DNA of 50,201 bases from a virus (Duplodnaviria; Caudoviricetes): positions 1 to 50,201 of the IMG/VR virus record IMGVR_UViG_3300025875_000618; one strand, written 5' to 3'. A program made the translations under genes and the position numbers. How positions within the stretch are numbered: the stretch's first letter is position 1; each line of letters opens with the position of its first letter. This document shows positions 1 to 49,458 of this stretch, piece after piece. The notes beneath the pieces were generated by a model. It was not told the DNA's origin, did not search any database, and was given only the letters and a program-made list of their open reading frames with translations.

Positions 1-1532
1 CGGGACCTCTCCAGGTCCGCGGGCAGCACCGCCCCCACCCGGCGGGCCGGGGGTGCAACTCCAGTGGCAGCGCGCGGCCCACGCTCCAAGTCCGGGGCCG
101 GCCCAGCTGGCGAGAGCTCCAGGGCGGGCAGGGACTGCCGGACCCGCTCCAGGTCCTGCCGCACCGCGGTGGCAATCTCCTGGGCCCGCTGCGCGTCCCC
201 CACCGCCACGTGCGCGTCGTGCAGCGCCCGCGCCATGTTCGCCAGCTGCCGCAGCAGCACCGCCTCCGCCACCGGCCCGCGCCCGCCGTGCGCCGCGGAC
301 GCCAGCAGCAGCGCCGCGCCCCGCGCCGTGGGCCCCACCCGCCGCTGCCCCCGGGTCTGCCACGCCGGCACCTGCGCGGACCGCGCCAGGGCGTCCGCGG
401 TGGCCGCCAGCGGCCCCGGGGTGTCCTCCACCCGCCGGGACCAGGCCGCGAACGCCCCAGACGTCTCCCGGGCCACCCGCGCCCACTCCGCCACGTCCTC
501 CACCGGCACCCGCCGCAGGTACTCCCGCACCTCCTGCAGCTCCGCGGACACCTGCTCCCAGGCGTCCGGCTCCGGCACCACGGTCTCCCGCCCGGGCGCG
601 GCCGGCCGCCGCTGCCGCCGCGCCGCCTGCCACTCCGCCACCGCCGCCTGCGCGCTCTCCGGGGTGTCCGGCCAGTCCTCCCGCAGCCGCGGCAGCGTCA
701 GGTCCTTGGCCAGGTGCCCACCGCCGTACCACACCGGCCGGTCCTCCCGGGACGCCGGCCGCGCGGCCACGGAGTACCCGGCCACCACCTGGTCCGTCCC
801 GGCGGCGTACCGCGGCCGCACCAGCAGCCGCTCCGCCCGCAGCCGGCGCACGAACTCCGCCTCGTCCCCGGACGCCGCGGCCGCGGCGCGCACCGTCCGC
901 GCCAGCGTCTCCCGCACCGTCTCCGGGGCGCCGGTGCGCCGCTGCTCCTCCAGCTCCGCTGGCTTCACCCCGCGCTCACCGCGGCCCCGGGACCGGGACT
1001 CCAGCACCTGCAGCCCGTACCGCTGCTCCAGCTCCCCGCACACCTTCTGCGCCCGCGGCTGGTCCCGCCACACGTCCGCCTTGGTGCCGTCCTCCCGCAC
1101 CAGGTTCACCACCAGGTGCACGTGGTCGTTGCCCGCGCTGGACAGCCCGTGCCGGACCGCCACCCACCGGCACGCCGCGCGGCCGCCCTCCGGCTCCTCA
1201 CCGCCGCCGGAGAAGCCCATGCGGTCCACGAACTCCTGCGCGATCTCCGCCCACCGCCCGTCCGTCTGCTGGCCCTCCTCCGCCCGCAGGGACAGGGAGC
1301 AGTGCCACACGTGCCCGCCCGGCACGTCCACCATGAACGCCCGCCGCGGGTGGTCCAGCTCCCGCGCGATGCTCAGCGCGGCGTCGTGGGACAGCTCCGT
1401 GTCGTCGTGCCACGCCATGATCGCGGGGTCACCGGCCACCAGGTGCGGGTCCGTGTGCTCGTTGCGTCTGCCTGGCCCCACCAGGTACGCCATGAGCCCG
1501 GACATGCGCGTGCCCCGGCTGATGTTGGGCAT
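1..1532 (-). CDS. Relaxase/mobilisation nuclease (MOB_P-like), 3' end beyond the window edge
   Basis: Manual translation from ATG at 1532: MPNISRGTRMSGLMAYLVGPGRRNEHTDPHLVAGD...VWHCSLSL...NDHVHLVVNLV. It has the catalytic Tyr motif and HUH motif of actinobacterial relaxases. Absent from the ORF track because it runs off the edge. Confidence 0.9.
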   Translation of the reverse strand, partial: MPNISRGTRMSGLMAYLVGPGRRNEHTDPHLVAGDPAIMAWHDDTELSHDAALSIARELDHPRRAFMVDVPGGHVWHCSLSLRAEEGQQTDGRWAEIAQEFVDRMGFSGGGEEPEGGRAACRWVAVRHGLSSAGNDHVHLVVNLVREDGTKADVWRDQPRAQKVCGELEQRYGLQVLESRSRGRGERGVKPAELEEQRRTGAPETVRETLARTVRAAAAASGDEAEFVRRLRAERLLVRPRYAAGTDQVVAGYSVAARPASREDRPVWYGGGHLAKDLTLPRLREDWPDTPESAQAAVAEWQAARRQRRPAAPGRETVVPEPDAWEQVSAELQEVREYLRRVPVEDVAEWARVARETSGAFAAWSRRVEDTPGPLAATADALARSAQVPAWQTRGQRRVGPTARGAALLLASAAHGGRGPVAEAVLLRQLANMARALHDAHVAVGDAQRAQEIATAVRQDLERVRQSLPALELSPAGPAPDLERGPRAATGVAPPARRVGAVLPADLERS

Positions 1533-1885
1533 CACCCCCGGTCCACCCCCTGGCTGGAGGGGCCGAACAGGTCCACGATCCGCTGCAGGTCACGTCCCGC
1601 GGCGTCACCCACCAGGCAGTGCTCCCGGCACGGACCGCACAGCCGGTCCTCCCCGCTGGCCAGCTGGGAGCACCGCCGGCGGTCTGGGTGCACGTGCGCC
1701 AGCGGCCAGCCCGGGCAGACGCAGCGGAGCACCGGGTCCAGCAGGTCCCCCAGGTTGCTGGACAGCGGGGTGTGCCGGGACCGCCACAGCTCCTCCACGG
1801 ACTGCGCCGCCTGGCCCAGGTGCGCGGACACCTCCCGGTGGTCCGCGATGCCGTAGCGGTGAGAGAACGGCGGGCGGCCGCTCAC
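1532..1885 (-). CDS. Hypothetical Cys/His-rich protein
   Basis: GTG start overlaps upstream stop; stop overlaps relaxase start; CxC...HxH...CxxCxxHC. Confidence 0.65.
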   Translation of the reverse strand: MSGRPPFSHRYGIADHREVSAHLGQAAQSVEELWRSRHTPLSSNLGDLLDPVLRCVCPGWPLAHVHPDRRRCSQLASGEDRLCGPCREHCLVGDAAGRDLQRIVDLFGPSSQGVDRG

Positions 1886-2106
1886 TCCCGGTGCTCCAGC
1901 GCCCGCACCAGCGCGCAGGGCCACAGCTCCCCGTCCCGCTGGCACTCCGCCAGCCCACCGCCGTCCGGGTGCTGCCACGGCCGGTGGCCCTCCGCGTACG
2001 CCTTGGCCAGGCCCTGGGCGCGCAGCTCCCGCTGCACCGGAGACTCCGCCAGCGGGCGGCACAGCCACGCGGCCCACAGCAGCAGGCCCAGCAGCAGCCA
2101 GCCCAT
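1882..2106 (-). CDS. Small membrane-anchored hypothetical protein
   Basis: MGWLLLGLLLWAAWL N-terminus; C-terminal H...C...WPC motif common in actinophage proteins; coupled overlaps. Confidence 0.65.
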   Translation of the reverse strand: MGWLLLGLLLWAAWLCRPLAESPVQRELRAQGLAKAYAEGHRPWQHPDGGGLAECQRDGELWPCALVRALEHRE

Positions 2107-2324
2107 CAGGGCCCCCACCGGCGGAGCACCGCGCGGCGCAGCGTGGGCGCGTACTCCGGCAGGTCCACCTGCTCCAGCGCCACCACCTCCCACAGCCCCG
2201 CCGGCTCCACCGCGGCCAGGACCACCCCCGGCACCACCTCAGGGACCGCGGCCACGTCCGTCCAGGTGACAACCCGCCCGTCTGCCTGGCCTACCTGCCC
2301 CGTCCACCGCACCAGCAGGGTCAC
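2106..2324 (-). CDS. Hypothetical protein
   Basis: GTGA overlap at start, TGATG overlap at end. Confidence 0.6.
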   Translation of the reverse strand: MTLLVRWTGQVGQADGRVVTWTDVAAVPEVVPGVVLAAVEPAGLWEVVALEQVDLPEYAPTLRRAVLRRWGP

Positions 2325-3395: not shown

Positions 3396-3946
3396 GCCGG
3401 CCCCCGCAGCAGCTGCAGCACCCGCTGCGCCACGAAGTACCGGGCGGCCGTGGCGTCGGCCACCGCCGCCTCCTCGCTGCCCTCCTCCGGGTGCTCCGCG
3501 GGCAGCTCCGCCATGCTGCGGGCCCGCAGCTCCCGGCAGTACTTTCGCACCCGGTCCACCGCCGCCTGCGCGTCCTCCGCCGGGTCCTCCGGCCCGTCCA
3601 GCTTCTGCTGCAGCAGGCACAGCTCCAGCTCACCCGCGCCGCCCGTCCCCGGCCAGCACCGCGGCATCTGCGCCCCACCGTTCGTGCCCCGCGTGTCCCA
3701 GCTGCAGCCGATCACCTGGCACTTCCGCAGCGGCGCGGACTGCCACACCTCCTCCTCCGTGCGCTCCCCGTCCCGCCGGCGCATGAGCCGCACCGCACCC
3801 CCGGCCGGGTAGCCCTCCGCGAACCGCGCCGCCTGGTGCCTGGCGTTGGACGCCCCGGGCCGCTGCCACGTGGTGGCCGCCTGCCACACCTCCTGCCCTG
3901 GCCGCCGCACCTGCACCTGGTACTCCGCGTCCTCCACCGTGCTCAC
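3392..3946 (-). CDS. Hypothetical protein
   Basis: 184 aa ORF, GTGA-coupled. Confidence 0.7.
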   Translation of the reverse strand: MSTVEDAEYQVQVRRPGQEVWQAATTWQRPGASNARHQAARFAEGYPAGGAVRLMRRRDGERTEEEVWQSAPLRKCQVIGCSWDTRGTNGGAQMPRCWPGTGGAGELELCLLQQKLDGPEDPAEDAQAAVDRVRKYCRELRARSMAELPAEHPEEGSEEAAVADATAARYFVAQRVLQLLRGPA

Positions 3947-4371
3947 GACCCCACGCTCCCCACGCCCTCAGCTGCCAGCGCGTCCAGCGCCTGGTCGATC
4001 CGCCCACCCGGGCCAGCCACGTCCCTCAGGTGCACCAGCAGCTCCCGCACCTCCACCACCGGCAGGTCCCGCGTGGTGTTCGCCTGCCGCGCCAGCTGGT
4101 TGAGGTTCGTGGCCACCCCCGCGCACTGCCGGCGCAGCGCGAACAGGTCACGCATCGCCTGCCGCCGCTCCGCCGGCACCTCCCGGTCCGCGGCCAGCGC
4201 GGACTCCACCAGCAGCCGCTGCACCGACACCCCCAGCCGCCCGGCGCGCAGCAGCAGCTCCGCCTCCTCCTCCGGGGACGTCCGCACTTTCCGCACCCCC
4301 GGCCGCCCGCCCGGTACACCCTCCCGCCGGGACCGGCCCAGCAGCTGCCCCGGCGTCCGCTCCCCGCTCAC
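3943..4371 (-). CDS. mobC: MobC family relaxosome accessory protein
   Basis: RHH-like N-terminus (KVRTSPEEEAELLLRAGRLGVSVQRLLVESAL) and the diagnostic NLNQLARQAN motif. Confidence 0.9.
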   Translation of the reverse strand: MSGERTPGQLLGRSRREGVPGGRPGVRKVRTSPEEEAELLLRAGRLGVSVQRLLVESALAADREVPAERRQAMRDLFALRRQCAGVATNLNQLARQANTTRDLPVVEVRELLVHLRDVAGPGGRIDQALDALAAEGVGSVGS

Positions 4372-4535: not shown

Positions 4536-4840
4536 GCTGCCCACCCCTCCACGATCAGCCGCACCATGCGCGCGCCCTCGTCCAGCTCCGTGGTCTCCTT
4601 CGGCGGGCGCACCAGTGCCAGCCCGGACTCCGCCACCGTGGCCGCGAACTCCCCGCGCACCTGCGTCCACCACATGCCCTCCATCACCGGCAGCCGCCTG
4701 GTCCACTCCGCCCCGATGACAGCGCGCACCGCGGTCACCCGCTGCCGGGACAGCCCGCCGCAGTCGCAGTCCACGTGGTCCCAGCCGGAGTCCGCCGGGC
4801 AGTCCGCTAGGTGCTCACGCCGGGGCCCGGGAGCGGTCAC
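4532..4840 (-). CDS. Hypothetical protein
   Basis: GTGA-coupled; H..DC...CDC motif. Confidence 0.6.
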   Translation of the reverse strand: MTAPGPRREHLADCPADSGWDHVDCDCGGLSRQRVTAVRAVIGAEWTRRLPVMEGMWWTQVRGEFAATVAESGLALVRPPKETTELDEGARMVRLIVEGWAA

Positions 4841-5643
4841 GGCTCCGCGGTCCAGTAGCCCAGGTGCGCGGCCGTGGACCACGTGTTCACCGCGTCCAGG
4901 TCCGGGTGCTCCGGCAGCGGCGTCCGGCCGTGCCGCAGCAGCCACTGCAGCTGCGCCGCCCGCTCGTCAATCAGCAGCAGCACCTCCCGCAGCGGCACCT
5001 CCCCACGCTTCACCGCCAGCACCAGCTCCCGGTCCTCCTCCGGCAGCGGCAGCGTCAGCCGGCCGGCCTGCACCACCTCCAGACCCTGGATGCACAGCCG
5101 CAGCGCGTGGGAGGCGTACTTGGTGTCGAAGCCGTGCGCGGCCACCAGCTCCGGCCGGTTGGGCGTGTGCCGCGTGTCCTGCCCCGTCACCCGCTGCCGC
5201 TGCGCCGTCATGTACCCCAGGAACCGCCGCCCGGCCTGCTGGGACAGCAGGGTGGGCCCGAACAGCCGCAGCTGCTCACCCAGCGGCGTGGACACCAGCA
5301 CGTGCTCCCGCGGCGCGAACAGCGGGAGCAGCGCCGTGGGATTCCCCGTGGCCACCAGCGCCAGGTACTTGCGCAGGGCGTACAGCGTCAGGTCCGTGTC
5401 CCCATGCCGGGACCGGTGACCCTCCGGCACCGTCCGCGCCACGTAGTGCTGCGCGTCCTGCGCGATGCCCAGCACCTGCTGCGGGGACTCCACGTACACG
5501 CCCATCTCGTCGTGGTCGTCCTGGCCCTCCAGCGCGATCCCGTGGACCCCGGAGCCCACCACCGTCCGCAGCACCTCCCGCTGCGGCGCGCTCCTGTCCC
5601 CGTTCTCCGTCAGCCACAGCCGCGTGGCGTCCAGCTCCGTCAC
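4837..5643 (-). CDS. Pol-beta superfamily nucleotidyltransferase (RlaP/YcgL-like)
   Basis: VVGSGVHG...DDHDEMGV (GS + DxD), GNPT, FDTKYASHALRL motifs. Confidence 0.85.
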   Translation of the reverse strand: MTELDATRLWLTENGDRSAPQREVLRTVVGSGVHGIALEGQDDHDEMGVYVESPQQVLGIAQDAQHYVARTVPEGHRSRHGDTDLTLYALRKYLALVATGNPTALLPLFAPREHVLVSTPLGEQLRLFGPTLLSQQAGRRFLGYMTAQRQRVTGQDTRHTPNRPELVAAHGFDTKYASHALRLCIQGLEVVQAGRLTLPLPEEDRELVLAVKRGEVPLREVLLLIDERAAQLQWLLRHGRTPLPEHPDLDAVNTWSTAAHLGYWTAEP

Positions 5644-6104
5644 CTCAGCACCTCCACGTAGGCGTCCGGGAACGCGCCCGTCTGACCCGACGCCGGCAGG
5701 TACACGGTCAGCCCGATCACCTCCGCCGACGTCACCCGCATCACCGGCGGGGCCTCCGCCAGCGCCGCGTCCATGTCCCGCTCCCAGGCCGCCAGGTCCA
5801 GCCGCGCCAGGTCCAGCCCACACGGGTACCGGCCCGGCGCGATGTTGTCGCACGTCCCAGACAGGATCACCTCCAGCGGGTCCAGCCCAGACGGGTACAC
5901 GCTCACCCGGCCCACCAGCGTGGCCCCCGCGTGACCCCCCGGCCACGGCCGCGTGTACAGCGCCATGAGCGGCACCGTCGCCACCCCGCTGAGCGCACCC
6001 GCCGCGATGCTCCGCCGGTCCGCCGTCTCCCGTTCCATCCACCCCGCGCGTCCCCGCACGGAGAACGGCTGCCGCAGCAGCACACCCGCCCTGTCCTGTG
6101 GCAC
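5640..6104 (-). CDS. Stand-alone prohead-protease-like domain protein (paralogue of domain in 31494-34166)
   Basis: GGAGGAG RBS before GTG 6104; TADRRSIAAGAL...PLM...GGHAGATLVGRV aligns by eye with TGDGRIFKVGSL...PLL...GHDGSIVVGRI. Confidence 0.6.
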   Translation of the reverse strand: MPQDRAGVLLRQPFSVRGRAGWMERETADRRSIAAGALSGVATVPLMALYTRPWPGGHAGATLVGRVSVYPSGLDPLEVILSGTCDNIAPGRYPCGLDLARLDLAAWERDMDAALAEAPPVMRVTSAEVIGLTVYLPASGQTGAFPDAYVEVLR

Positions 6105-6214
6105 TGGCTCCTCCGCCTGTCGTCTCTCAGCCCAGCGCAGCGATCCCCGCCAGGGGAACCCCCGATGTACGCCAGGGTCGCACAGCGTCACCGCAGCGTC
6201 CAGCGGCAGCCCGC

Positions 6215-6250
6215 CGTTAGGGCCCCTTGCCCTCTAGCTTGCTCACCCCC
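6215..6250. other. Candidate oriT / nic site
   Basis: CTAGCTTGCTC at 6234-6244 resembles MOB_P nic cores (ATCCTG/C, GCTTG/C). It lies in the intergenic gap at the head of the operon containing mobC and the relaxase. Confidence 0.4.
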
Positions 6251-6331: not shown

Positions 6332-6637
6332 ATGGCTGAGACCCCGACCCCCGCGCAGTACGTGGACAGAGCCCAGGCGCTCCTGCAGGACCGGCTGGAC
6401 GTGGTGCAGGACCTGGTGCAGACCAGGCTGGCCGTGGAGGCGGCGCAGGCCGCGCTGGCGGAGGCGCAGCGGGCGGACGCGGTGGCGTACGCCGCGGCCA
6501 CCCGGAAGGGGTGGACGGAGCAGGAGCTGGGCCTGGTGGGCATCGCTCCGCCGGCGGTGCGCGTCCCGGGCCGGCCGCGCAGCCGGGGCAGCCGGGCGCG
6601 GGGCGGCCAGCAGGGACAGGAGCAGCAGCAGGAGTAG
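6332..6637 (+). CDS. Small coiled-coil hypothetical protein, plasmid-type
   Basis: MAETPTPAQYVDRAQALLQDRL...YAAATRKGWTEQEL; divergent from the mob operon and followed by a hairpin. Confidence 0.75.
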   Translation: MAETPTPAQYVDRAQALLQDRLDVVQDLVQTRLAVEAAQAALAEAQRADAVAYAAATRKGWTEQELGLVGIAPPAVRVPGRPRSRGSRARGGQQGQEQQQE

Positions 6638-6697: not shown

Positions 6698-7246
6698 TCA
6701 GGAGGCGGCGGCCTCCTCCTCCCCGAACCGCTGCAGGTACTGCACCAGGGTGACGCGCTCCCAGCCGTGCTCCGTGGCGGCGGGCTCCAGCTCCCGGGTG
6801 ACGCCCTGGGTGCCCCAGGTGACCCACACGGCGTCCTCCTCCAGGCGCACGCCGCAGCTGTACAGGCCCAGGCCGGAGAAGGCGCGGCCGCGCATCCCGT
6901 GCAGCTCCTCCAGCTCCCGGCGCTGGTCGGGCTGGGAGTACCGCTGCAGCTCCTTCTCCAGGCGCTTGTTGCTGGCGCGGGGGCGGATCAGCTGTGGGGT
7001 CTTGACGGGGCGGAACCAGCCGCGGGGCAGGTCCACGCCGTCCGGCCAGCCCAGGCCGGAAAAGCGGTGGCCCTGGAAGTAGGCCACGCGGGTGGGGTCT
7101 CCTGTGGGGACGCCGGCGGTGTCGTACAGGGCGTCCATCCACACCTGCCGCTCCTGGGTGGTCTGGACGTGGCGGGCCTGGACGTCCGCGGCCCAGGCCA
7201 GCAGCTCCGGGGTGCTGTTGCGGTAGACGAGCGCGGGCACGGTCAT
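6698..7246 (-). CDS. Hypothetical protein
   Basis: 182 aa, GAGGAG RBS, ATGA overlap. Confidence 0.75.
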   Translation of the reverse strand: MTVPALVYRNSTPELLAWAADVQARHVQTTQERQVWMDALYDTAGVPTGDPTRVAYFQGHRFSGLGWPDGVDLPRGWFRPVKTPQLIRPRASNKRLEKELQRYSQPDQRRELEELHGMRGRAFSGLGLYSCGVRLEEDAVWVTWGTQGVTRELEPAATEHGWERVTLVQYLQRFGEEEAAAS

Positions 7247-7587
7247 GGGGTCTCCTCTGTGTCGTTGGGGTGCATGACGCGGCGGTGGTCGGTCAGCTCC
7301 TGCCGGGTGTGCAGGACCTCTCCGCAGGGGCAGGTGACGGTGGCCTCCAGGACCACCCAGCCGCGGCTGCGGAGAGCCCGCCAGCAGCGGCCCAGCAGGT
7401 ACCAGGCGACGCCGGCGATGGTCCCGGCCACCAGGACCCAGGCCAGGTGGCCCCAGCCCTCGTCCTGCGCGATGTGCCAGGTGTTGAGCAGCCAGCCGGC
7501 CAGGATGACCCAGTTGCCGTAGCGGGCCCAGTCCCGGCCCCAGCGGCGGAGGGCCCAGCCGCCGGCCATGAGCACCAGGGCGGTCAC
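7243..7587 (-). CDS. Membrane protein with C-terminal C2H2-like motif
   Basis: Hydrophobic segments; CPCG...HRRVMH. Confidence 0.65.
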   Translation of the reverse strand: MTALVLMAGGWALRRWGRDWARYGNWVILAGWLLNTWHIAQDEGWGHLAWVLVAGTIAGVAWYLLGRCWRALRSRGWVVLEATVTCPCGEVLHTRQELTDHRRVMHPNDTEETP

Positions 7588-7694
7588 CGGGGGTCCCTCC
7601 GGCCCCACGGGTTGCCGCGCTGCCGGCGGCGGCCCTGGGCGGCTCCCACCAGGAGTCCCAGGGCCACGCCGGCGGCGAGTGCCAGGGCGGTCAC
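7584..7694 (-). CDS. 36-aa membrane peptide
   Basis: GTGA-coupled both sides; VTALALAAGVALGLLVG. Confidence 0.5.
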   Translation of the reverse strand: MTALALAAGVALGLLVGAAQGRRRQRGNPWGRRDPR

Positions 7695-8266
7695 CAGTGG
7701 TAGTCCAGACCCAGGGCGCGGGCCAGGACGAGTCCGCCGGCGCGGGCGGGCTCGCACGGCCAGCTGGTGGTCCAGCCGTCTCCCCAGCAGACGGCGCACT
7801 GCCACAGGTGCGGGGTGCCCATGCCGTCCCAGACGGGCCGGTGGCACTCCGCGGGCAGCGCCTGCCGCTCCTCCGGGGTCAGCTCCTGGTACAGGCGCAT
7901 GGCGGCCGGCTCCGGGGTGCGGGTGCGGGGCTGGCCGGGAGCGTCGATCAGGTAGCCCAGGCGCTTCATCCACTGGAGGACGTGGGCCACCAGGGCGTCC
8001 CGGGCGCCGATGGGGAGCGCGTCCACGCGGGTGGGGTCCACGGTCTGCCCGGTGAGGCGGAGGAGCGCCCACAGCTCCTCCACGCTGATGACGGGCTCCA
8101 CGCCGCAGCTGGGCTCATGGGCGCCGGGGAATGGGCTGTCCCAGTGCCCGGCGCCGCAGGTGTGGCGGCCGGTCTCCAGGACCAGCCAGGCCCCGTCCAC
8201 GTGGAGCTGGCCGTCTGGGCTCTGCGGCTGCGGCAGCGGGGAGACGCCGGTGGGTGGTGTGGTCAC
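7691..8266 (-). CDS. Hypothetical protein
   Basis: 191 aa; CH.P...W.CAVC...WPC motif. Confidence 0.7.
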   Translation of the reverse strand: MTTPPTGVSPLPQPQSPDGQLHVDGAWLVLETGRHTCGAGHWDSPFPGAHEPSCGVEPVISVEELWALLRLTGQTVDPTRVDALPIGARDALVAHVLQWMKRLGYLIDAPGQPRTRTPEPAAMRLYQELTPEERQALPAECHRPVWDGMGTPHLWQCAVCWGDGWTTSWPCEPARAGGLVLARALGLDYHW

Positions 8267-8568
8267 GCTGGGGTCTCCTGGGTGGTGTCGGTGGCGGGCT
8301 CCCAGACCACGGGCTGGGAGCGTTCGATGGTGACGGTGGCGGCGGGCTCCACGCGGTACCCGCCGTCCTCAATGCTGCGGGCCTCCACGTGGTAGCCGGT
8401 GCGCATCCGGGCGGCGCGCTGGTGCGCGGCCTGGGCGGACTGGTAGTGGCGCACCACGGTGTAGCTGCGCAGCACGGTGCCGTCCGGGGCGCGGTCGGTG
8501 ACGTACGTGGCGGTGACCCGGTACAGGCGCTTGGTCCGGTTGGCGGTCAGAACGGCAGCACCGCCCAC
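8263..8568 (-). CDS. Hypothetical protein (start uncertain)
   Basis: Protein-like composition; stop coupled to next gene. Confidence 0.6.
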   Translation of the reverse strand: MGGAAVLTANRTKRLYRVTATYVTDRAPDGTVLRSYTVVRHYQSAQAAHQRAARMRTGYHVEARSIEDGGYRVEPAATVTIERSQPVVWEPATDTTQETPA

Positions 8569-9413
8569 ACGGCGTGCACGGTGCCGTCCGTCCCGCCGGC
8601 CACGTGCCAGGCGGGGTGGTCCTCACCCTCCAGCCAGGTGCACCAGTCGTGCTCCGGGGTGGGAGCGCCGGGGCTGGCCGCGTGGCAGTACCGGCGGCCC
8701 ACCGGGGCCTTGTCCAGCTGGGGCGTGGGGTCCGGGTCTCCCACCGCGTAGGGCGGCGGCAACTGCCACGGGTCAGGGGAGCCCGCGGGGGGCGTGCTCT
8801 GCTGGCGAGCCCAGGCCAGCAGCGCCAGGCCCAAGCCGGCGGCGGAGTGCTCCGTCAGGTCCAGCAGGCTGGTGGAGTCCGTCTCCAGGTGCACCGCGGT
8901 GCCGTACGGCTGGAGGACCACGGGGCCCTCCCCGTCTCCCTGGTCCGGGCCCACCCACAGCGGGCCGGGCAGCTCCGGGGTGAGGACGTGGCAGGCGCAC
9001 CGGCAGGTGTCCGGGTCCTCCTGGTCCGCGGCCCGGTCGGAGCACTCCGCGTGCCAGCCGATGGAGCACTGGCGGTTGATGCCCAGGGTGCTCCCGGTGC
9101 GCGCCAGGCGGTCCGTCCAGGAGTCCGCGGTCTCCTCACCCTGGGGGCCCAGCGGGGGGACGTCCGCAGGGGACAGGTGCACGCCGGCGGGCAGCGGCTC
9201 CTGACTGGTGGGCCACACGTCCGTGACGCGGCCGCGGGTGTCCGCGGCCACGTGCCAGTCCGGGTGCTCCGGGCCGGCGGCCCAGGTGCACCAGCGGGCA
9301 CGGCCGACGCCGGCGGGGTAGCGGACCGCCCAGCAGTAGGCGGCCGGGTCCTGCAGCTGCGGCGTGGGGTCCGGGTCACCCGGCGTCCACGGCGCGGGGG
9401 CCGGGGCGGTCAC
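8547..9413 (-). CDS. Hypothetical protein with duplicated Cys/His domain
   Basis: GDPDPTPQL...YC...WCTW...HP.WHVA at both termini. Confidence 0.75.
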   Translation of the reverse strand: MTAPAPAPWTPGDPDPTPQLQDPAAYCWAVRYPAGVGRARWCTWAAGPEHPDWHVAADTRGRVTDVWPTSQEPLPAGVHLSPADVPPLGPQGEETADSWTDRLARTGSTLGINRQCSIGWHAECSDRAADQEDPDTCRCACHVLTPELPGPLWVGPDQGDGEGPVVLQPYGTAVHLETDSTSLLDLTEHSAAGLGLALLAWARQQSTPPAGSPDPWQLPPPYAVGDPDPTPQLDKAPVGRRYCHAASPGAPTPEHDWCTWLEGEDHPAWHVAGGTDGTVHAVWAVLPF

Positions 9414-9916
9414 TGGGCTGCCTCCGTCCGGGCGGGCCGCGCCGGCGGTGCCCAGTCCAGCCAGGGCACGCCCACGTCTGGCTGGCTCAGGTCCGGGCGG
9501 GTCATGGTGGTGCCGCCCAGCGGGGAGCCACCGAAGACGGCGCGCTCCAGCAGCTGCAGGATGCCGTCCCGGGTCAGGCCCTTGGGGCGCTCACGGCGGT
9601 ACCGGGCCAGGTCCGCGCCGCAGCCGTCCTGCAGCAGCATGAACTCCCGCTGCTGGATGACCAGGGCGCCGGTGCACTCCCGGACGCGGGAGTGCACGGG
9701 GGCTGGGCGGTAGCCGGCGGCCTGGGCCCTCTCGGACACCGGGTTGCCGGGGTCGGTGGGGTGGCAGGACATGCGCTCACCGCGGCGGAGCTGCGCCCAG
9801 AGGCGCTGCAGGTTGGCCTTGGTGTACCAGCCGTCCGGGTGGCGCTTGCCCTGGTTGCTGGGCCGCCAGGGGCAGTGGACGCAGGGGGTAGGTGCTGCGG
9901 GGTCAGGCAGGGTCAC
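9410..9916 (-). CDS. DUF6283-like Cys-rich protein
   Basis: PCVHCPWR...MSCH...CTGAL pattern; GAGGAG RBS. Confidence 0.7.
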   Translation of the reverse strand: MTLPDPAAPTPCVHCPWRPSNQGKRHPDGWYTKANLQRLWAQLRRGERMSCHPTDPGNPVSERAQAAGYRPAPVHSRVRECTGALVIQQREFMLLQDGCGADLARYRRERPKGLTRDGILQLLERAVFGGSPLGGTTMTRPDLSQPDVGVPWLDWAPPARPARTEAAQ

Positions 9917-9965
9917 GGGGTGCTCCTCAGCGCGTGCGTGGGTGGGGTGGTGCGGGGCGGGGCGG

Positions 9966-10271
9966 TCAGTAGTCGGGGCTGTCCGGCGGGTCGGTCAGGG
10001 TCTCCGTGGTGTCCTCCAGCTGGGAGCGGGCCTCACCCACGCTGTCCACCAGCTCCTCCACGGCGTCCAGCCAGGTCTCCGCTGCCTCCCCGCGGGGGCT
10101 CTCCTGCCACTTCTCCGTGCGCTCCGCCCAGACCTGGCGGCCGTTGGCCAGCAGGTCCTCCAGCTGGCCGGACAGCTGCTCCAGGTCCGCCCGGGCGTCG
10201 GTCATGGTGTTGCGGGACTCCGTGATGCGCTCCAGGAGCGCGGCGGGGATGCGGAAGGGGTCAGCGGCCAC
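9966..10271 (-). CDS. Helical phage protein
   Basis: RTEKWQESPRGE motif within a coiled-coil; GAGGAG RBS. Confidence 0.75.
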   Translation of the reverse strand: MAADPFRIPAALLERITESRNTMTDARADLEQLSGQLEDLLANGRQVWAERTEKWQESPRGEAAETWLDAVEELVDSVGEARSQLEDTTETLTDPPDSPDY

Positions 10272-10686
10272 GGTGGGTCTCCTCAGGGGTGGGGCGGGTG
10301 GACAGGTCACGGTGCTGGGCCACCAGGTAGGCGCGGTGGCCGGCGGCGTGCCAGCGGGCGGCGGCCAGCAGCTGGCGGTCTCCCAGGAGGCGGGCGTCCC
10401 GGATGCGCTGCACCTGGTGGCGGTAGGCGGACAGGCGGGCGGCGCGCTCGTTGGCCTCCGTGCGCTGCGGCCGGTGGTACCAGCCGCCGGGCCACATAGT
10501 GGCCTCCCGGCCAGGGCAGGGCTCCTCCAGCGCGGAGCCGTAGTCCGGGCCGCCGGCGTTGAGCCCGGCGCGCCCGCAGCGGCCGCAGGTGTGCCGGTGG
10601 TGGCTGCCGTCCGCGTGGGGGCGGTGGCCCAGCTCCGCCATGCGCGCGGCGATGCGCGCGGTGGGGTCCTGCAGGCGGGTGCTCAC
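10261..10686 (-). CDS. Hypothetical protein
   Basis: GH...CGRCG...C motif; GTGA-coupled. Confidence 0.65.
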   Translation of the reverse strand: MSTRLQDPTARIAARMAELGHRPHADGSHHRHTCGRCGRAGLNAGGPDYGSALEEPCPGREATMWPGGWYHRPQRTEANERAARLSAYRHQVQRIRDARLLGDRQLLAAARWHAAGHRAYLVAQHRDLSTRPTPEETHRGR

Positions 10687-11030
10687 GGCTGGGTGGCCGC
10701 GGGAGTGGGGGCGTGGCGGGTGACCAGCTGCCGCAGCCAGTCCGGCGCGCCGGGGCCCTGCTCGCTGGGCTGCAGGAGGACGCCGGCGGCGGAGATGTAG
10801 CTGCGGCCGCTGGTCTGCCCGCCCGCGTAGGGGCGGCCGTCCGCGGTGAGGCGGGGGCCCTGGATGGACGCGCGGGTCAGCACGCCGTCCTCCCAGCGGA
10901 CGGTGACGCGGGTGGGCTGGAAGGTGCGGCCGGTGTGGTCCCGCATGGGCTCCAGGCCGGTCACGGCGGCGCGGAGCTGGGTGGCGGTGTAGGTGTGCAG
11001 CTGGGTGATGGTGGGGCTGGTGTCAGGCAC
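10683..11030 (-). CDS. Hypothetical protein
   Basis: GAGGAG RBS; IQGPRLTADG...APDWL. Confidence 0.7.
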   Translation of the reverse strand: MPDTSPTITQLHTYTATQLRAAVTGLEPMRDHTGRTFQPTRVTVRWEDGVLTRASIQGPRLTADGRPYAGGQTSGRSYISAAGVLLQPSEQGPGAPDWLRQLVTRHAPTPAATQP

Positions 11031-11090
11031 GGTGGGTCTCCTCAGAGGGTGGGGCCTGGCCCGCCCGGGGGCAGGGGGCGGGCCAGGCGG

Positions 11091-11396
11091 TCAGGGGGTG
11101 GTGTCAGGGCCGGGCGGGGGGACCTCCTCGTACCAGGTCCGCCCGCCGGCCAGCCGGTCCATGACGCGGACCAGGTTGGTGTCCTCCGCGTAGGCGTCCC
11201 AGTAGCCGCGGCACATCGCCTCTCCGGCGTCCGGGTAGGGCCCGTACGGGAGGGTGCTGTGGCAGGTGAGCACGGTGCCGGCGTCCCGGTTGCCCTGGAC
11301 CACCTCACGGAAGCGGCCCTCCGCCAGGTGCATGGGGTTGCCGGCGCGGAAGATGCACGTGCCGCACTTTTCGCTCAGGAGCCGCGGCTTCCTCAC
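11091..11396 (-). CDS. Second DUF6283-like Cys-rich protein
   Basis: CGTCIFR...TCHST...MCRGY. Confidence 0.65.
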   Translation of the reverse strand: MRKPRLLSEKCGTCIFRAGNPMHLAEGRFREVVQGNRDAGTVLTCHSTLPYGPYPDAGEAMCRGYWDAYAEDTNLVRVMDRLAGGRTWYEEVPPPGPDTTP

Positions 11397-12599: not shown

Positions 12600-12604
12600 G
12601 GTGT

Positions 12605-12690: not shown

Positions 12691-12727
12691 GCCGGGCTCC
12701 GGTGTGGAGCCCAGCCCGGGCGGGGGG

Positions 12728-14083: not shown

Positions 14084-14120
14084 GAGCAGTACTGTACACC
14101 CCCGGTGGACACATACGGCA

Positions 14121-36489: not shown

Positions 36490-36547
36490 GGTGAGCCGGC
36501 GGCGGGCAGCTCCCCCCGTGGCTGTCCGCCGCCCCACGCCGCGCCCA

Positions 36548-38020: not shown

Positions 38021-38119
38021 GGCGGGGGACTCCCAGGGGGTGGTCTCCGCCCGGCCCTCAGCGCAGCAGCGTCCCCGCCAGGCTACCGGCGGGGCGCTGC
38101 TGCTGCGGGGAGGCGCCGG

Positions 38120-39631
38120 TCAGCCGTTGGACGGGTGGAACTGGATGTTGATCTCCACGAAGCTGCCGGCGCTCATGGTGCCGCCCTGGAAGGTGACGGC
38201 GCCGGTGGTCTGGACGTCGAAGCGCAGCCCGGTGGAGGCGGCCTGGAAGGACAGGTGCGTGACGGTGGGGCGGAAGCCGGCGGGGAGGGTGAACAGGGTG
38301 ACGCCGAAGGCGGTGGTGGCCACGCACTTCATCAGGCCCTGCACGTAGATGCGGCCCTCCGCGGTCTTGCCGTACTTGACCCGCCCGAAGTTGGCGGGGT
38401 CCCAGTCCGTGTACTGGGCGGTGTTGGCCCAGGTGACCGCGGCGGGGGCCACGGCGGCGGACTGGGCGGAGGCGGGGAGCTGCGTGGTGGGCACCAGGCC
38501 GTTGGCGTCCAGTCCCGCGTAGCCGCCGGCCACGCCCTTGCCGGACGTCTGCTGCGCGCCGGTGATCCGGGAGTCGGCGCCGTCCGCGGCGGTGCCGGCG
38601 GTGGTGCCGATGACCAGGCTGGAGGTGCCGGCGCCCAGGGCGGTGCGGGCGGCTGCGGCGGTGGCGGCGGTGACCACGGACCGGCCGGTGGCCGTGGAGT
38701 CGGTCAGGTCCGCGGAGGACAGGGTGACCGCGCCGGTGCGGCCGGCCACGGTGGAGACCGGAGACGCCGGGTACGTCATCTGTCGCCAGGACGCCAGGGC
38801 GGTGGGGTCGTCCGCGATGAGCTGCCAGTCCGTGCCCAGGTCCGTGCGGGTGGCCCAGTCACCGCGCTGCCCGGTGAGCGCCAGCATGGCGGTCTGGGAG
38901 GCGACGGCGCCCAGGAACTCCGTGAGGGCCACGGCCGGGAGCTGCGCCTGGGGGATCTTGCCGGAGGAGTCCAGGGAGGCGTAGCCGCCGGCCGTGCCCT
39001 TGGCGGTGGTCTGCTGGGCGCCGGTGATCCGGGAGTCGTTGCCGGCGGCCACGGTGGAGGCGGCGGTGCCCACGGGGAGCTGCGCGTACGGGACCTTGGT
39101 GGTGGCGTCCAGGGAGGCCACACCGCTGGCCGCGCCCCGCTTGGAGTTGGACAGCAGGTTGGAGTACGCCCAGCCCTGGGTGGCCACGTCCGCGGCCGCG
39201 GACGGGTCAGCGGCGCGGAGCCGGCCGGCGGCGTCCCGGGTGGCCAGCGCGCCGGGGGTGGGGAGGCTGGTGGCCGCGGCCAGCAGGGCTGCCTCCGGGC
39301 TCAGCTCCGCGCGGGCCAGCGCCCGGGCCGCGGCCGCGGACGTGGGCTGGCCCAGGACCAGCGCCAGGCTGGCGTCGGTGAGCCCGCCCTGCGCGCGGAG
39401 GACCTGGGAGGCGTACGTGTCCGGGTCCGCCAGCAGGGCGGACAGGGCGTGGTCCACGTCCCCGGTGCTGTTCACCGTGTCCGGGGGCGGGACCACGGGG
39501 GCGGGGATGACGGTCCAGTACCCGACGTCGATCATGCGGGCGGCCACCCGCGCGGTGTCGTCCACCTGGAAGCGGGAGCCGTACGCGGCCAGGTCCGTGT
39601 TCGTGTTGGCCCGCACCCACACCAGCGTCAC
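38120..39631 (-). CDS. Tail-fibre / minor tail-like repeat protein
   Basis: Three (K/R)G.A.G(V/Y)A.LD....P..QLP repeats, two DSRITGAQQT, VSTVAGRTGAVTL, C-terminal LFTLPAGFRP domain. Confidence 0.75.
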   Translation of the reverse strand: MTLVWVRANTNTDLAAYGSRFQVDDTARVAARMIDVGYWTVIPAPVVPPPDTVNSTGDVDHALSALLADPDTYASQVLRAQGGLTDASLALVLGQPTSAAAARALARAELSPEAALLAAATSLPTPGALATRDAAGRLRAADPSAAADVATQGWAYSNLLSNSKRGAASGVASLDATTKVPYAQLPVGTAASTVAAGNDSRITGAQQTTAKGTAGGYASLDSSGKIPQAQLPAVALTEFLGAVASQTAMLALTGQRGDWATRTDLGTDWQLIADDPTALASWRQMTYPASPVSTVAGRTGAVTLSSADLTDSTATGRSVVTAATAAAARTALGAGTSSLVIGTTAGTAADGADSRITGAQQTSGKGVAGGYAGLDANGLVPTTQLPASAQSAAVAPAAVTWANTAQYTDWDPANFGRVKYGKTAEGRIYVQGLMKCVATTAFGVTLFTLPAGFRPTVTHLSFQAASTGLRFDVQTTGAVTFQGGTMSAGSFVEINIQFHPSNG

Positions 39632-43313: not shown

Positions 43314-43520
43314 TCAGAAGGCGGCGGACCAGGCGGCGTAGACCGCTGGGGGCGCGCAGGCCAGCGCGGTCAGGGCCAGCACGGACAGCCCGAAGCGGAG
43401 GGCCTGCCAGGTGCCGGCCCGGTGCTCCGCCTCCTCAGCCGCGGCGGCGTCCCGGCGCAGTGGTGCCTGCTGCGCCGCGTCCCGTAGTTGCGTGACCTTG
43501 CTCATGGCGTCCCCCGTCAT
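43314..43520 (-). CDS. Small membrane protein downstream of terminase
   Basis: ATGA overlap with terL; C-terminal TM. Confidence 0.6.
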   Translation of the reverse strand: MTGDAMSKVTQLRDAAQQAPLRRDAAAAEEAEHRAGTWQALRFGLSVLALTALACAPPAVYAAWSAAF

Positions 43521-45094
43521 CGTCCGATCCCTGGGCGGCGGACTCCTCCGCCGCCGCCCCCACCTACGCGCAGCCCAGTGGCTGAGCCGATCACTGCCTG
43601 ACCCACCAGGGGGGACACCACCAGGTGCAGCACCGCCTGGGTCAGCATGTCCACCGCGTCGTCGTGCGCCCCGTTGGGGAAGGCGGCGGCCTCCACCACC
43701 AGCTCCTCCACGTTGGGCAGCAGCTCCGGGTCCGGCAGGTGGACGTTCTTGGAGGCCACCAGCGGCGCCGCGGCGTTGGCCCGCGCGATCTTGCCGCCCT
43801 CCGGCTCCACCGGGTGCAGGCCGGCCACGCTCTTGCGGAGCATGTCCATGACGGCCGTGCCGTTGGCCTTGTCCTCCACCAGCTTGAGCGTCGCCTGCGG
43901 CCACCGGGCGGTGAGCGCGCGCACCGCGTCCAGGGTGTCGGTGAAGCTCATGCGGCGGCGCACCATGTCCAGCAGGTACAGGTCCACGCCCCGTTTCAGC
44001 CAGACCCCGCCCACCACGTAGTCCGCCTGGTCGTGGCTCTTGAACGCCATGTCCCAGGACTGGGCCAGCTGGTCCCCGGGGGCGGGCGGCACCCAGCGGG
44101 AGCCGTCCGCGCGCTCCACCCACAGGGGCGCGGAGTAGCGGGCCCAGGAGGCGCGCTTGAACAGGTCACCCTCAGCGGGGGACGGGTGCCCCTGGTACAG
44201 GGCGGTCCAGGTGTGCGCGGACCGGGCCTTGCGCTCCTCCCACTGGGCGGTGGTGCGGCCGCGGGCGCTCTCCAGGTACTCCCCGGGCTCCCGGCCCAGC
44301 GGGTCCGTCTCTCCCAGCTCCGGGCGGTGGTCCGCCTGCGCGGGGATGTTGAGGACCTGCCACTGCGGGCCCTCCGCGGACGCCAGCAGCCGGCCGGCCA
44401 GGTCGTCCTCATGCCAGCGGGTGAGGATCAGCACCACGGGCGCGCCGGGGGCCAGACGGGTGGAGGCCACGTCCGTCCACCAGTCCCACACCGCCTCCCG
44501 GTAGGTGAGGGAGTCCGCCTGCTTGCGGTCCTTGATCGGGTCGTCGATGACCAGCAGGTCCACCGGGCGGCCGGTCAGGGCGCCACCGATGCCGGTGGTG
44601 TACATGCCGCCCTCATGGCCGGCCAGCTGCCACTCATGCTGGGCGGAGACGTCCGGGCGGACGGACAGGCCCAGCTCCCCGGAGTGCTGGCCGATGTCGT
44701 CCCGGATGACGCGGCCCCAGCGGCGGGCCACCCGGTCCTCGTAGGAGGCCAGGGCCACGCGCAGCTCAGGGTTCTGCAGCAGCGCCCAGAGGGGGAAGGC
44801 GCGGGAGGCGCGCTGGGACTTCCCCTCCTGCGGGGGCATGGAGATGATGAGCTTGCCGTCCGGGGTGTCCAGCAGCTCCACCAGCGCGGCGTCGATTGCC
44901 TCCAGGGCGGGGGTCTGCACCACCTTGGGGTTGAGCGTCTGGGCGAGAGCTCCAGGTGTGCGCCAGCGGTCCCGGGGGCGGTCCCGGTTGGCGCGGTCAC
45001 TGATCGCGAACAGGGCGCGCGCCTCCGCCTCCAGCTCCTCCAGGGTCATGGAGGCTGGGTCTGCCAGGCCGGGGAGGACCGCGCCCGCGGTCAC
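43517..45094 (-). CDS. terL: Terminase large subunit
   Basis: Walker A MPPQEGKS, Walker B LLVIDD, TRWHEDDL, ALYQG, nuclease SWD, EDKANG, FPNGAHDDAVD. Confidence 0.95.
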   Translation of the reverse strand: MTAGAVLPGLADPASMTLEELEAEARALFAISDRANRDRPRDRWRTPGALAQTLNPKVVQTPALEAIDAALVELLDTPDGKLIISMPPQEGKSQRASRAFPLWALLQNPELRVALASYEDRVARRWGRVIRDDIGQHSGELGLSVRPDVSAQHEWQLAGHEGGMYTTGIGGALTGRPVDLLVIDDPIKDRKQADSLTYREAVWDWWTDVASTRLAPGAPVVLILTRWHEDDLAGRLLASAEGPQWQVLNIPAQADHRPELGETDPLGREPGEYLESARGRTTAQWEERKARSAHTWTALYQGHPSPAEGDLFKRASWARYSAPLWVERADGSRWVPPAPGDQLAQSWDMAFKSHDQADYVVGGVWLKRGVDLYLLDMVRRRMSFTDTLDAVRALTARWPQATLKLVEDKANGTAVMDMLRKSVAGLHPVEPEGGKIARANAAAPLVASKNVHLPDPELLPNVEELVVEAAAFPNGAHDDAVDMLTQAVLHLVVSPLVGQAVIGSATGLRVGGGGGGGVRRPGIGR

Positions 45095-47811: not shown

Positions 47812-48023
47812 GGGTAGCTCCGCACGCGGGGAGCGGGCGCGGCTACCGGCTCCGGCTCCGGGTCCACGCAGTGCCAGGACGTGGGCGCGTACGCGCGGAC
47901 CAGGCGCTGCGCGAACACGTCCCCGTTGACCAGCACCAGGGAGCCGCCGGCGTCCAGCCGGTAGTGGTCCGCGGTCACCACCTCTCCGGGGTCGCCGGGG
48001 GTGATGCGCACGCGCCACCTCAC
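47808..48023 (-). CDS. Small phage hypothetical protein
   Basis: VTADHY...G.L.L...VRAYAP..W. Confidence 0.65.
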   Translation of the reverse strand: MRWRVRITPGDPGEVVTADHYRLDAGGSLVLVNGDVFAQRLVRAYAPTSWHCVDPEPEPVAAPAPRVRSYP

Positions 48024-48916
48024 TGGCCACCGTCCCGCCGGTACGCGGCCGCCTCGCGCCGGAGCCGGGCGGCTGCCCGCGCGTGGGCCGCGGCCTCTGC
48101 CTCCCGGTCCTCCGCCTCCCGCTGCCACTCCGGCCGGGTGTCCTCCGGGGTGAGCGGGCTGCGGGTGAGCCGGGCCAGCTGCCGGATGGTGGACGGCAGC
48201 AGCGGCACCAGCACGCCGTGGGTGCCGTCCAGGACCGGCAGGTGTTCCGTCACGGCACGGACCAGGGAGTCCGCCACGTCCTCCGGGGTCCCCGCCCACA
48301 CGTTGCCCACCGCGCCCGCGCCGTTCTCCGCGGTCCAGCGGCCCCACACCCGGTGCACCTCCACGCCGGTCACCCCGGACATGCCGTGCCGCAGGGCCTC
48401 CGCCAGCACGGGGTGCAGCGGGTGCTCCCGCGCCTCCACGTCCGGCACCGTCTCCGTCTGCACCTGCTGGCCCACCTGGTCCCCGTCCTGGTCTGCCTGG
48501 GGCGGGCCCGCCACCAGGGTGATGCCACCGGCCGCCAGCACAGCGGCCTGCACGTCCACCGGCAGCTGCACCAGCGGCTGCTGGAAGATCGCGTCCCGCA
48601 CTAGCTGGGCCACGTGCCCGGACCAGGACTGGCCCAGCTGCAGCTGCCCGCACAGGCAGCCCGCCACGTTCCCCGCCGGGCCGCGCTCCGTCAGGTGGTG
48701 CGCCAGCACGCCCGCCAGCACCTGCCACAGGTGGGCCTCCCGGACGTCCGCCGGCACGCGGCCCGCGTACTCCGGCTCCGGGCGCGGGGCCACCGCCGCA
48801 CGCAGCTGGGAGACGATGCCGAAGGAGGAGGACGCCGGGGAGTACCCCAGCCGCTCCAGCACCCGGCGCAGCAGCGCCCGCTCCACCGCCACCTGACCCG
48901 TGCCCAGCGCGGTCAC
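48020..48916 (-). CDS. Hypothetical protein
   Basis: 298 aa, GTGA-coupled to terS; H...CLCG...HVA. Confidence 0.7.
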   Translation of the reverse strand: MTALGTGQVAVERALLRRVLERLGYSPASSSFGIVSQLRAAVAPRPEPEYAGRVPADVREAHLWQVLAGVLAHHLTERGPAGNVAGCLCGQLQLGQSWSGHVAQLVRDAIFQQPLVQLPVDVQAAVLAAGGITLVAGPPQADQDGDQVGQQVQTETVPDVEAREHPLHPVLAEALRHGMSGVTGVEVHRVWGRWTAENGAGAVGNVWAGTPEDVADSLVRAVTEHLPVLDGTHGVLVPLLPSTIRQLARLTRSPLTPEDTRPEWQREAEDREAEAAAHARAAARLRREAAAYRRDGGQ

Positions 48917-49458
48917 AGGGCACCAGCCAGCGGCACGGCGTCCGGGTCACCCTGCGCGCGCCGCGCAATCTCCGCGGCCAGCGCACGCAGCCGGTCCCGC
49001 TGCTGCTCCGTGGACAGAGCCTCCAGCTGCACCGGGCCACCGTCCGGGCCGGACACCTCCGTGCGGTCCGCCTGCCCCAGCGCCTGCCGCTGCACCTTCG
49101 TCGTGATCTCCAGCCAGTACCCCAGGTCCCGCGGGGTCAGCTGGGACACGTCCAGGTCCGCCAGCCGGTTGACCAGCTGCCCCTGCATCGCGTTGGCGAT
49201 GCGGAGCTGCCGGCGCCCGACCTCCCGGCGGTGGCCCTGCTGCTGCGCACGCCAGATGCGGTCCTGCTCCTCGTCCCACGTGCCCACGCGCTGCACCCAG
49301 GAGTCCTGCGCGGACCAGCGTTCGATCAGGGTGGTGGACTTGCCCAACGCCTGCGCCACCTTGGCCAGACTCCGGTCAGGGCCCATGTCCCGGTAGCGGA
49401 CGAAGGCGGCGAACCGCTTCGCTCCCTCGCCTACCAGGCGCTCCCACGGCTCTGCCAC
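48913..49458 (-). CDS. terS: Putative terminase small subunit
   Basis: PWER..GE..K.F.AF..YRDMG..RSL...HTH...WV.RV..WD; C-terminal EVSGPDGGPVQ. Confidence 0.75.
   Translation of the reverse strand: MAEPWERLVGEGAKRFAAFVRYRDMGPDRSLAKVAQALGKSTTLIERWSAQDSWVQRVGTWDEEQDRIWRAQQQGHRREVGRRQLRIANAMQGQLVNRLADLDVSQLTPRDLGYWLEITTKVQRQALGQADRTEVSGPDGGPVQLEALSTEQQRDRLRALAAEIARRAQGDPDAVPLAGAL

Follow-up and report, generated by a model that had tools for sequence, protein, structure and literature searches.

Gene content of a 50-kb metagenomic virus record points to tailed phages that may also be conjugative plasmids of actinobacteria

The stretch of DNA studied here, hereafter the window, is the entire 50,201-bp virus record IMGVR_UViG_3300025875_000618 (GC ~75%). 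We think it likely that it represents about half of a conjugative phage-plasmid of ~90-95 kb, probably circular and devoid of integrase, that would spread both by mating and in virions. The initial annotation had noticed packaging genes together with genes of conjugative mobilization, and proposed either a mobilizable phage-plasmid or a hybrid between a phage and an integrative mobilizable element (IME). The co-occurrence is borne out: family scans place TerS, TerL, portal, MuF-protease, MobC and relaxase on this one record, and two near-complete relatives, the IMG/VR contig G001 (94,637 bp) and G002 (87,200 bp), have the same gene order. The phage-plasmid part of the proposal stands. The IME part is not supported, no integrase having been found, and the element of these relatives is probably self-transmissible rather than merely mobilizable, because genes for a coupling protein and a type IV secretion system (T4SS) belong to the family's own gene set. 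The features of the window on which the argument turns are listed below (ORF, open reading frame; oriT, origin of transfer).

3..1535, minus strand: MOBP-type relaxase (PF03432, E 1.6e-12), about 15 C-terminal residues lost at the contig end
1532..3946, minus strand: seven small coupled ORFs between mobC and the relaxase gene, with homologues in the same place for 3/7 in G001 and 1/7 in G002
3943..4371, minus strand: MobC relaxosome accessory protein (PF05713, PF21983), its start read from the sequence and overlapping the upstream stop
4837..5643, minus strand: RlaP-family nucleotidyltransferase, between the oriT-like motif and mobC (PF10127; phrog_388, E 1e-52), 88% in G001
5640..6083, minus strand: small stand-alone ORF next to the oriT-like motif, with a weak likeness to the MuF-protease (phrog_859 positions 388-527, E 3e-5)
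6130..6244, minus strand: oriT-like bipartite motif, GAGCAAGCTA ... GCTGCGCTGGGC, with a GC-skew step at the same site
6332..6637, plus strand: small gene divergent from mobC, arranged as in plain plasmids (same-position tblastn matches in 3/6 plasmids, E 1e-9 to 1e-11, and in G001)
31494..34166, minus strand: MuF/head-maturation protease fusion (PF04233, phrog_859, phrog_18402)
34163..34531, minus strand: portal, C-terminal piece as an ORF of its own (phrog_776 positions 516-618)
34528..36054, minus strand: portal, main piece (phrog_776, E 1e-129; 877 phage records match)
43517..45094, minus strand: TerL (PF03237, PF17289, phrog_38), 90% to G001, with a ratio of nonsynonymous to synonymous rates (dN/dS) of 0.20
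48020..48916, minus strand: ORF whose homologue is divided between both ends of G001, closing the latter into a circle
48913..49458, minus strand: TerS (phrog_6299, E 1e-23)

The codon model called 96 genes in the window, 93 of them on the minus strand. Four-nucleotide overlaps join 43 of the 92 adjacent minus-strand pairs, and 7 of the 8 junctions from the relaxase gene to mobC, in agreement with the co-oriented, coupled gene chains described initially. The record ends within the relaxase gene, for which a frameshift beyond the window had been considered; instead, a full-length twin of 525 aa (P0242) is identical at 507 of 510 positions. The catalytic tyrosine Y16 and the HUH-motif residues H137 and H139 are invariant in the 15 rows of the alignment. 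This relaxase is 53-59% identical to plasmid relaxases, and four of the six plasmid records inspected are typed MOBP. Its operon differs from theirs, as mobC abuts the relaxase gene in 5/6 of these plain plasmids. The small genes that separate the two in the window had been called phage-type. The flanking RlaP gene (phrog_388) and the gene style agree with this, but a PHROG match was obtained for only one of the seven, and a weak one (E 0.0012). The 96 proteins include no integrase, recombinase or transposase according to the family scans, no tRNA gene was found in the window, and no long att-like repeat pair bounds positions 1-6700 among the 20 largest direct-repeat families listed (of at least 60). 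Together with a synteny with G001 that runs through window positions 1-11 kb, this upholds the earlier observation that no junction, att site or transposase separates the two gene sets.

Both relatives carry the coupling protein, T4SS and capsid genes that had been suggested as a check. G001 encodes a relaxase and a portal 80% and 76% identical to those of the window, and 60 of the 96 window genes match it, mostly in the same order. Downstream of its relaxase come DUF4913, a VirD4-like coupling protein (PF02534, PF12696), a VirB4-like ATPase, SCO6880, three proteins without family matches, DUF6668, a ParA-like ATPase and an M23 peptidase. This conjugation cluster matches that of an Aeromicrobium MOBP plasmid gene for gene (35-62%), and includes the VirB4-like ATPase, which is 62% identical to its plasmid counterpart even though its profile match is below the cut-off (NF045971, E 1.5e-5). 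The cluster is followed by the major capsid (NF033847, E 3e-179), tail tube, adaptor, neck, tape measure, Dit, endolysin, holin, RecT/exonuclease, RusA and TerS; with TerL, portal and protease also present, the set of virion, packaging and lysis genes is complete. G001 has MobC as well. Both ends of G001 lie within the homologue of window gene 48020-48916, a few hundred bases of which are missing, and the gene order thus closes into a circle without host DNA. More generally, the contigs break at differing points of one circular gene order, and none of the genes called is a host gene.

G002 follows the same plan, with 53-70% identity to G001 for the main phage and transfer proteins. Its virion, packaging and lysis genes are complete by homology to G001, small genes again stand between mobC and the relaxase gene, the T4SS block has the opposite orientation, and a ParA and a protein with a ParB C-terminal domain are encoded beside the capsid gene. 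A third copy of the T4SS-capsid junction, ~80% identical to G001, was found on the 17.9-kb contig L117. Neither tyrosine integrase nor resolvase was detected in any of the four records: PF00589 was absent from those labelled G000, G001 and G002, PF00239 from G001 and G002, and PF07508 from G000 and G001. FtsK matches were also absent among the 96 window proteins and 71 scanned G001 proteins, with a Pfam model that can miss diverged TraB.

The other half of the window's element seems to carry the coupling protein, T4SS and capsid, for which the evidence is circumstantial. A near-identical relaxase and a coupling protein 73% identical to that of G001 each occur on a 17,515-bp contig. A copy of this coupling protein (594/596) was found on a contig of 3,833 bp, a length close to the expected distance from the window end to L117, and a copy of the L117 capsid (591/592) on a 42,448-bp contig; the coupling-protein and capsid copies come from a second source.

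The bipartite motif at 6130-6244 occurs once in the window and in none of 100 shuffles. It lies upstream of mobC in 6/6 plasmids, is present in 3/3 hybrids, and a pattern scan of IMG/VR retrieved only G001 and G002. We infer from its position that it may be the transfer origin, and we take it to resemble MOBP nick sites. In the window, four genes stand between the motif and mobC. The parts examined of a survey of transfer origins (10.1101/2024.01.30.577996) contain no mention of it. The largest GC-skew step of the window, G001 and G002 falls at this motif (0.30-0.35), as against at most 0.14 in two pure phages; it was not seen in the six plain plasmids, mostly with short flanks. The initial annotation had also claimed a shared codon style. 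This holds for the GC content of third codon positions (GC3), which is 0.88-1.00 in mob and packaging genes alike, but not for fourfold-degenerate G/C sites, where G accounts for 78% (970/1242) in the genes of 3-6083 and 46% (646/1394) in the packaging genes. Since the T4SS genes lack this G-rich skew and plasmid relaxases show only 0.31-0.61, we regard it as positional rather than inherited; it does extend over the phage-type RlaP gene. In G001 and G002, too, the mob-side genes favor codons ending in G. A bidirectional origin of replication was set aside as an explanation, because most of the effect is confined to a pulse of 4-7 kb next to the motif, on the side of the mob genes.

The phage and conjugation genes have diverged in step. 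The proportion of synonymous differences (pS) between the window or L117 and G001 is 0.22-0.33 for conjugation genes and 0.18-0.30 for phage genes, and between G002 and G001 it is 0.42-0.44 and 0.39-0.44, respectively. Purifying selection acts on TerS, TerL, portal and capsid alike. As judged from sequence divergence, this is therefore an old lineage and not a chimera or a recent fusion. The capsid group comprises 23 clusters at 90% identity (support 99), and its longest contigs measure 87.2, 90.5, 94.6 and 96.7 kb. Its sister group includes the terminally repeated phages G003 (51.8 kb) and G005 (48.9 kb), without coupling protein. Relaxase trees were built with FastTree (121 rows) and IQ-TREE (39 rows picked from those 121). 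In the latter, five phage-linked and three unplaced relaxases make up one side of a branch (8/39 rows, SH-like approximate likelihood ratio test 91). Circumstantial evidence for further members comes from two more capsid/relaxase pairs on contigs of equal size (38,270 and 21,529 bp), which group with G002 in both trees. The phage-linked relaxases adjoin relaxases named from Klenkia and Modestobacter, so the host is likely an actinobacterium near those genera.

How the two modules came together can be read from the head operon. The protease shares the locus of the capsid gene in 67/80 GTDB loci (the best 80 of 132) and in 123/157 viral or metagenome loci. The two genes are ~2-3 kb apart in G003 and G005 but 46 kb apart in G001 and ~36 kb apart in G002, which suggests that the conjugation region and the small genes entered the head operon. 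Under this scenario, a phage of ~50 kb of the G003/G005 type would have acquired an actinobacterial conjugative plasmid backbone once, between the protease and capsid genes; small genes would then have invaded the mob operon, the tape measure would have lengthened and the portal gene split. The portal is indeed encoded as two pieces of ~508 and 120 aa with a 4-nt overlap in the window (34163-36054), G001 (9976-11858) and G002 (70891-72830), a split kept across 60% divergence, whereas G003 and G005 have a single ORF. The tape measure has 1274-1293 aa in the hybrids and 901-913 aa in the 49-52 kb sisters, i.e., ~370 residues more. The merger looks old because of these two changes, the genes inserted around mobC, and a promoter-like motif (described below) that occurs in G001 both within the block (at 21,651) and in the early region of the phage genes (79,696 and 86,197). 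In three other GTDB loci (L076, L098 and L114) the 10 kb upstream of the capsid gene gave no protease match, and the best coupling-protein relative in the genomes concerned is 28% identical; these may be other rearranged head operons.

The way of life that these genes would support can be outlined from established MOBP biology and, for the phage side, from gene content. The element would persist as a plasmid prophage in an actinobacterium, a state suggested by the lack of an integrase and by the ParA/ParB genes, present in G002 only. For mating, the oriT-like motif would be nicked by the relaxase together with MobC; the strand would then pass from the VirD4-like coupling protein to the VirB4/SCO6880 channel, with the M23 peptidase making an opening in the wall. 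Once induced, the element would be packaged by the terminase into an enlarged head (T ~12-13 by scaling), and endolysin and holin would lyse the cell. We give roughly even credence to the broader picture of an old, diversified clade of tailed phages that would also be fully self-transmissible relaxase-T4SS plasmids, with head and tail enlarged for ~90 kb, a switch between lysis and mating, and a use of the transfer origin heavy enough to leave a strand-asymmetric mutational footprint on nearby phage genes.

Several observations weigh against these readings. Dual spread is here a prediction from gene content. Among the 96 genes of the window itself, family scans detected none for capsid, tail tube, tape measure, coupling protein or T4SS, and its link to the other half is indirect. 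Terminal repeats are missing from both G001 and G002. There is no clear partition pair in G001, and in place of a plasmid-type Rep it encodes just an HTH_36 protein; blastp found no G002 homologues of DUF6668 and of the ParA-like ATPase. G001, G002 and L117 share one assembly prefix, which makes them separate elements and not independent samples. The monophyly of the phage-linked relaxases is not starred and the larger FastTree tree does not resolve it, while the coupling-protein group takes in two rows not known as phage-linked. Values of dN/dS are below 1 in all 24 pairwise comparisons (0.18-0.71), a rough measure at a GC3 near 95%. Lastly, the cultured phages with this portal measure 53-71 kb (top 25 matches), which means that a larger head would be required, and the capsid N-terminus, taken as a marker of size, does not cleanly separate the size classes.

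The packaging of ~90 kb is the weak step of the proposed mechanism. The element could instead be a conjugative plasmid that keeps a phage module with too small a head, whose particles would carry sub-genomic headfuls (as in transduction or gene-transfer agents) while the element itself moves by mating alone. The sister phages of 49-52 kb, with capsids 61-63% identical, fit this alternative. The head of phage Rosebush presumably belongs to the same family as that of the window's element. It has T=9 and holds 67.5 kb (PMC7150772), from which scaling with a published exponent (PMC8814770) gives T 10.8-11.4 for 87-95 kb, and a preprint on tyPPing argues that fusions usually outgrow the head (10.1101/2025.08.29.673033). 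No solved structure matched the capsid by sequence. Yet the four longest contigs fall in the narrow range of 87-97 kb and the same head family occurs in four plasmids of Streptomyces that measure 99-104 kb, both of which favor a larger head; the longer tape measure and the purifying selection on TerS, TerL, portal and capsid also speak against a small one. We thus consider this alternative unlikely.

It is also rather improbable that the element is a phage first, temperate or pseudolysogenic, that captured the locus for relaxase/oriT-primed replication, for concatemers, or for T4SS-mediated protein export or exclusion. The position of the largest skew step at the oriT-like motif fits this reading, as does the lack of a recognizable plasmid Rep in the window, G001 and G002, and the sister phages also lack an integrase. 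But the relaxase, MobC, oriT-like motif, coupling protein and channel genes are retained together in plasmid order, i.e., as a DNA-transfer set, and G002 has ParA/ParB. The window has no clear ParA/ParB partition pair.

A recent cointegrate of an ordinary prophage and a conjugative plasmid, or a discrete mobilizable insert at 1-6.2 kb, is largely refuted and now very improbable. The usual proximity of protease and capsid in GTDB, where 0/80 loci have conjugation genes, does imply that the 46-kb block of G001 was an insertion in origin; the codon skew of 1-6.1 kb is distinct, and fusions such as p1002-1 and those of pMT1 are in print. However, identical junctions recur in elements whose synonymous sites have reached saturation, and the modules are interleaved, the block splitting the head operon and small genes lying within the mob operon. 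The skew spans the phage-type RlaP gene and not the T4SS genes, it is mostly absent from plasmid relaxases (0.31-0.61), and no recombinase was found.

A metagenomic misassembly of phage and plasmid is hardly credible: the GC content is high, the sample holds several related elements and no single contig spans the window, but the same layout recurs in three separately diverged records, the window is collinear with G001 across the contig break of the latter, and the depth of the listed pieces is even in two sequencing runs. In run X1, near-identical pieces with depths of 10.6-20.2 are listed from 886 to 39,811, and between 20 and 40 kb the listing at 98% shows no joint; this run is possibly the source sample of the window and hence not independent. 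In run X2, at least 16 short pieces with depths of 2.1-3.3 extend from the relaxase to 37,873. None of the listed pieces bridges 4,879-6,659. Where pieces are listed, no step in coverage is seen of the kind that the initial annotation had thought might betray a junction.

We searched for other carriers in several collections. IMG/VR profile scans for the relaxase and for the coupling protein each returned only G001 and G002. A GTDB scan with a single capsid gave no matches, and one with the capsid alignment gave 132 relatives, the best 80 at 35-51% identity; none of these 80 loci has conjugation genes within 10 kb of the capsid gene. A sample of 301 genomes of the order gave 2 distant matches. 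Among 50,697 phage records no relaxase match was found, and the coupling protein had 3 weak matches, in short unannotated records. PLSDB contains 7 plasmids with the head family, none typed mobilizable, and PF03432 was not found in the five of them that were tested. Across 157 viral and metagenome capsid loci, only those of L117, G001 and G002 have conjugation genes; the metagenome scan extended over 48 of 64 parts, in which the 96.7- and 90.5-kb contigs were not recovered. A cultured carrier of the hybrid element was thus not found in the GTDB, phage-record and PLSDB scans.

The remaining features of the window are the following.

6698..31497, minus strand: ~50 mostly small genes, many in the same order in G001
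within 6698..31497: a DUF1353 gene and a C1 peptidase, the peptidase on the plus strand (family scans)
12629..26988, minus strand: four copies of a promoter-like motif, TACACT(C)CCCATGTAC, starting at 12644, 15038, 24777 and 26988, ahead of small-gene clusters
15716-18223, minus strand: ParB-methylase-PALP fusion of 835 aa (ParB-like domain, DNA methylase, PLP-dependent (PALP) domain)
36057..39631, minus strand: DUF1360-like gene and two fibre/minor-tail-like genes, a GDSL esterase and a repeat protein (family scans)

The place of the ParB-methylase-PALP fusion is taken in G001 by two ParB-domain genes and a TET-associated glycosyltransferase, with small QueF-like and Vut_1-like genes close by; the gene content suggests interchangeable DNA-modification cassettes in this region. 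The repeated promoter- or operator-like motif at the four minus-strand starts is TACACTCCCCATGTAC, and three looser copies lie on the plus strand at 13237, 15060 and 15467. It was not found in G002, G003 or G005. The two large fibre-like genes between TerL and portal (36548-39631, minus strand) have no homologue among the genes called in G001, and their products could possibly serve in receptor binding or head decoration. The small ORF at 5640-6083 aligns with the window's own protease (15/41 identical, E 0.002); its homology to an ORF of G002 was not supported. Run X1 also contains variant contigs at 5230-5611 (the RlaP gene) and 19356-19416 (upstream of the peptidase), which indicate related elements in the same run.

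Mobile elements are classified by a single means of horizontal transfer, either virions or conjugation, and binary phage/plasmid classifiers can hide elements that combine them; the hybrid records studied here are filed as viruses. If the proposed lifestyle is true, the choice of one genome between lysis and mating becomes directly testable, as do two further ideas: that a capsid can evolve to a size that accommodates a 40-kb plasmid, and that a phage can bypass the limits set by receptors through conjugation. Such a dual lifestyle would not be categorically new, since pZL12, p1002-1 and tandems of phages and integrative conjugative elements (ICEs) exist. In the literature searched, however, we found neither a published description of the window's family nor a stable, interleaved and integrase-less phage lineage with relaxase and T4SS. 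A 2025 review states that elements combining spread in virions with conjugation had not been found; a single-cell preprint mentions conjugative phage-plasmids.

The closest parallel in lifestyle is pZL12 of Streptomyces (NC_013420, 90,435 bp), a circular element of ~90 kb with ParA/ParB and phage genes; the window's family is of similar size, probably circular, and also has phage genes, with ParA/ParB in G002. Published accounts treat pZL12 as a temperate phage living outside the chromosome (PMC7157519) that is passed on by conjugation (PMC3583192; see also PMC4487206 on this extrachromosomal, conjugating phage). Its transfer relies on an FtsK/SpoIIIE-like double-stranded DNA translocase, an FtsK-like gene being annotated, where the window's family has a relaxase and T4SS; pZL12 also has an integrase, and no relaxase, coupling protein or T4SS is annotated in it. 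The circular 102-kb NZ_CP109332 of Streptomyces sp. NBC_01590 combines a translocase 88% identical to that of pZL12 with the head family of the window, and PF03432 was not found in it. Its translocase gene lies five genes from the terminase, and five more Streptomyces plasmids of 88-90 kb have the translocase at 77-90%. By gene content, NZ_CP109332 and its kin are probably an unlabelled family of TraB-type conjugative plasmid-phages.

With the phage-plasmids as defined by Pfeifer and Rocha (P1, N15, SSU5; the parABS cluster A mycobacteriophages), the family shares the tailed-phage gene set, the lack of a detected integrase, a narrow range of sizes and partition genes (in G002). P1-like elements acquire mob and oriT mostly after the loss of phage genes (PMC10879196), and the sources consulted treat the gain of relaxases as sporadic, as following phage decay or as the result of fusion (PMC10879196; PMC7969092; 10.1101/2025.11.07.687105; 10.1101/2025.08.29.673033). 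On the plasmid side, the MOBP plasmids of the Arthrobacter/Aeromicrobium type, predicted to be self-transmissible (PMC6305408), have relaxases 53-59% identical, the same oriT-like motif and the same order from DUF4913 through coupling protein, ATPase and SCO6880 to DUF6668. They differ by the absence of virion genes in the stretches inspected, by mobC abutting the relaxase gene (5/6) and by the lack of a skew step at the motif. On the phage side, the sisters G003 and G005 have the same head family (capsid 61-63% identical to G001) and the same GC content as the hybrids, but no coupling protein, no oriT-like motif, a single-ORF portal and a shorter tape measure. The cultured Arthrobacter phages Pointis and Beagle, Microbacterium phage Hyperion and Gordonia phage Bakery also have this head family, with portals 34-37% identical.

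Phage and conjugation genes also meet on one molecule, as they do here, in p1002-1 of E. coli, a conjugative phage-plasmid formed by fusion (10.1101/2025.03.14.643293), in the pMT1 fusions, and in the phage-ICE tandems of Streptococcus, which co-transfer (PMC13651849). The class of IMEs, ICEs and phage-ICE tandems needs an integrase and att sites; no integrase was found in the window's family, and no att-like pair bounding 1-6700 among the direct-repeat families listed for the window. Whereas these known cases are side-by-side fusions or integrase-built tandems whose parents can still be recognized, the window's family is interleaved, integrase-less and co-diverged across a clade.

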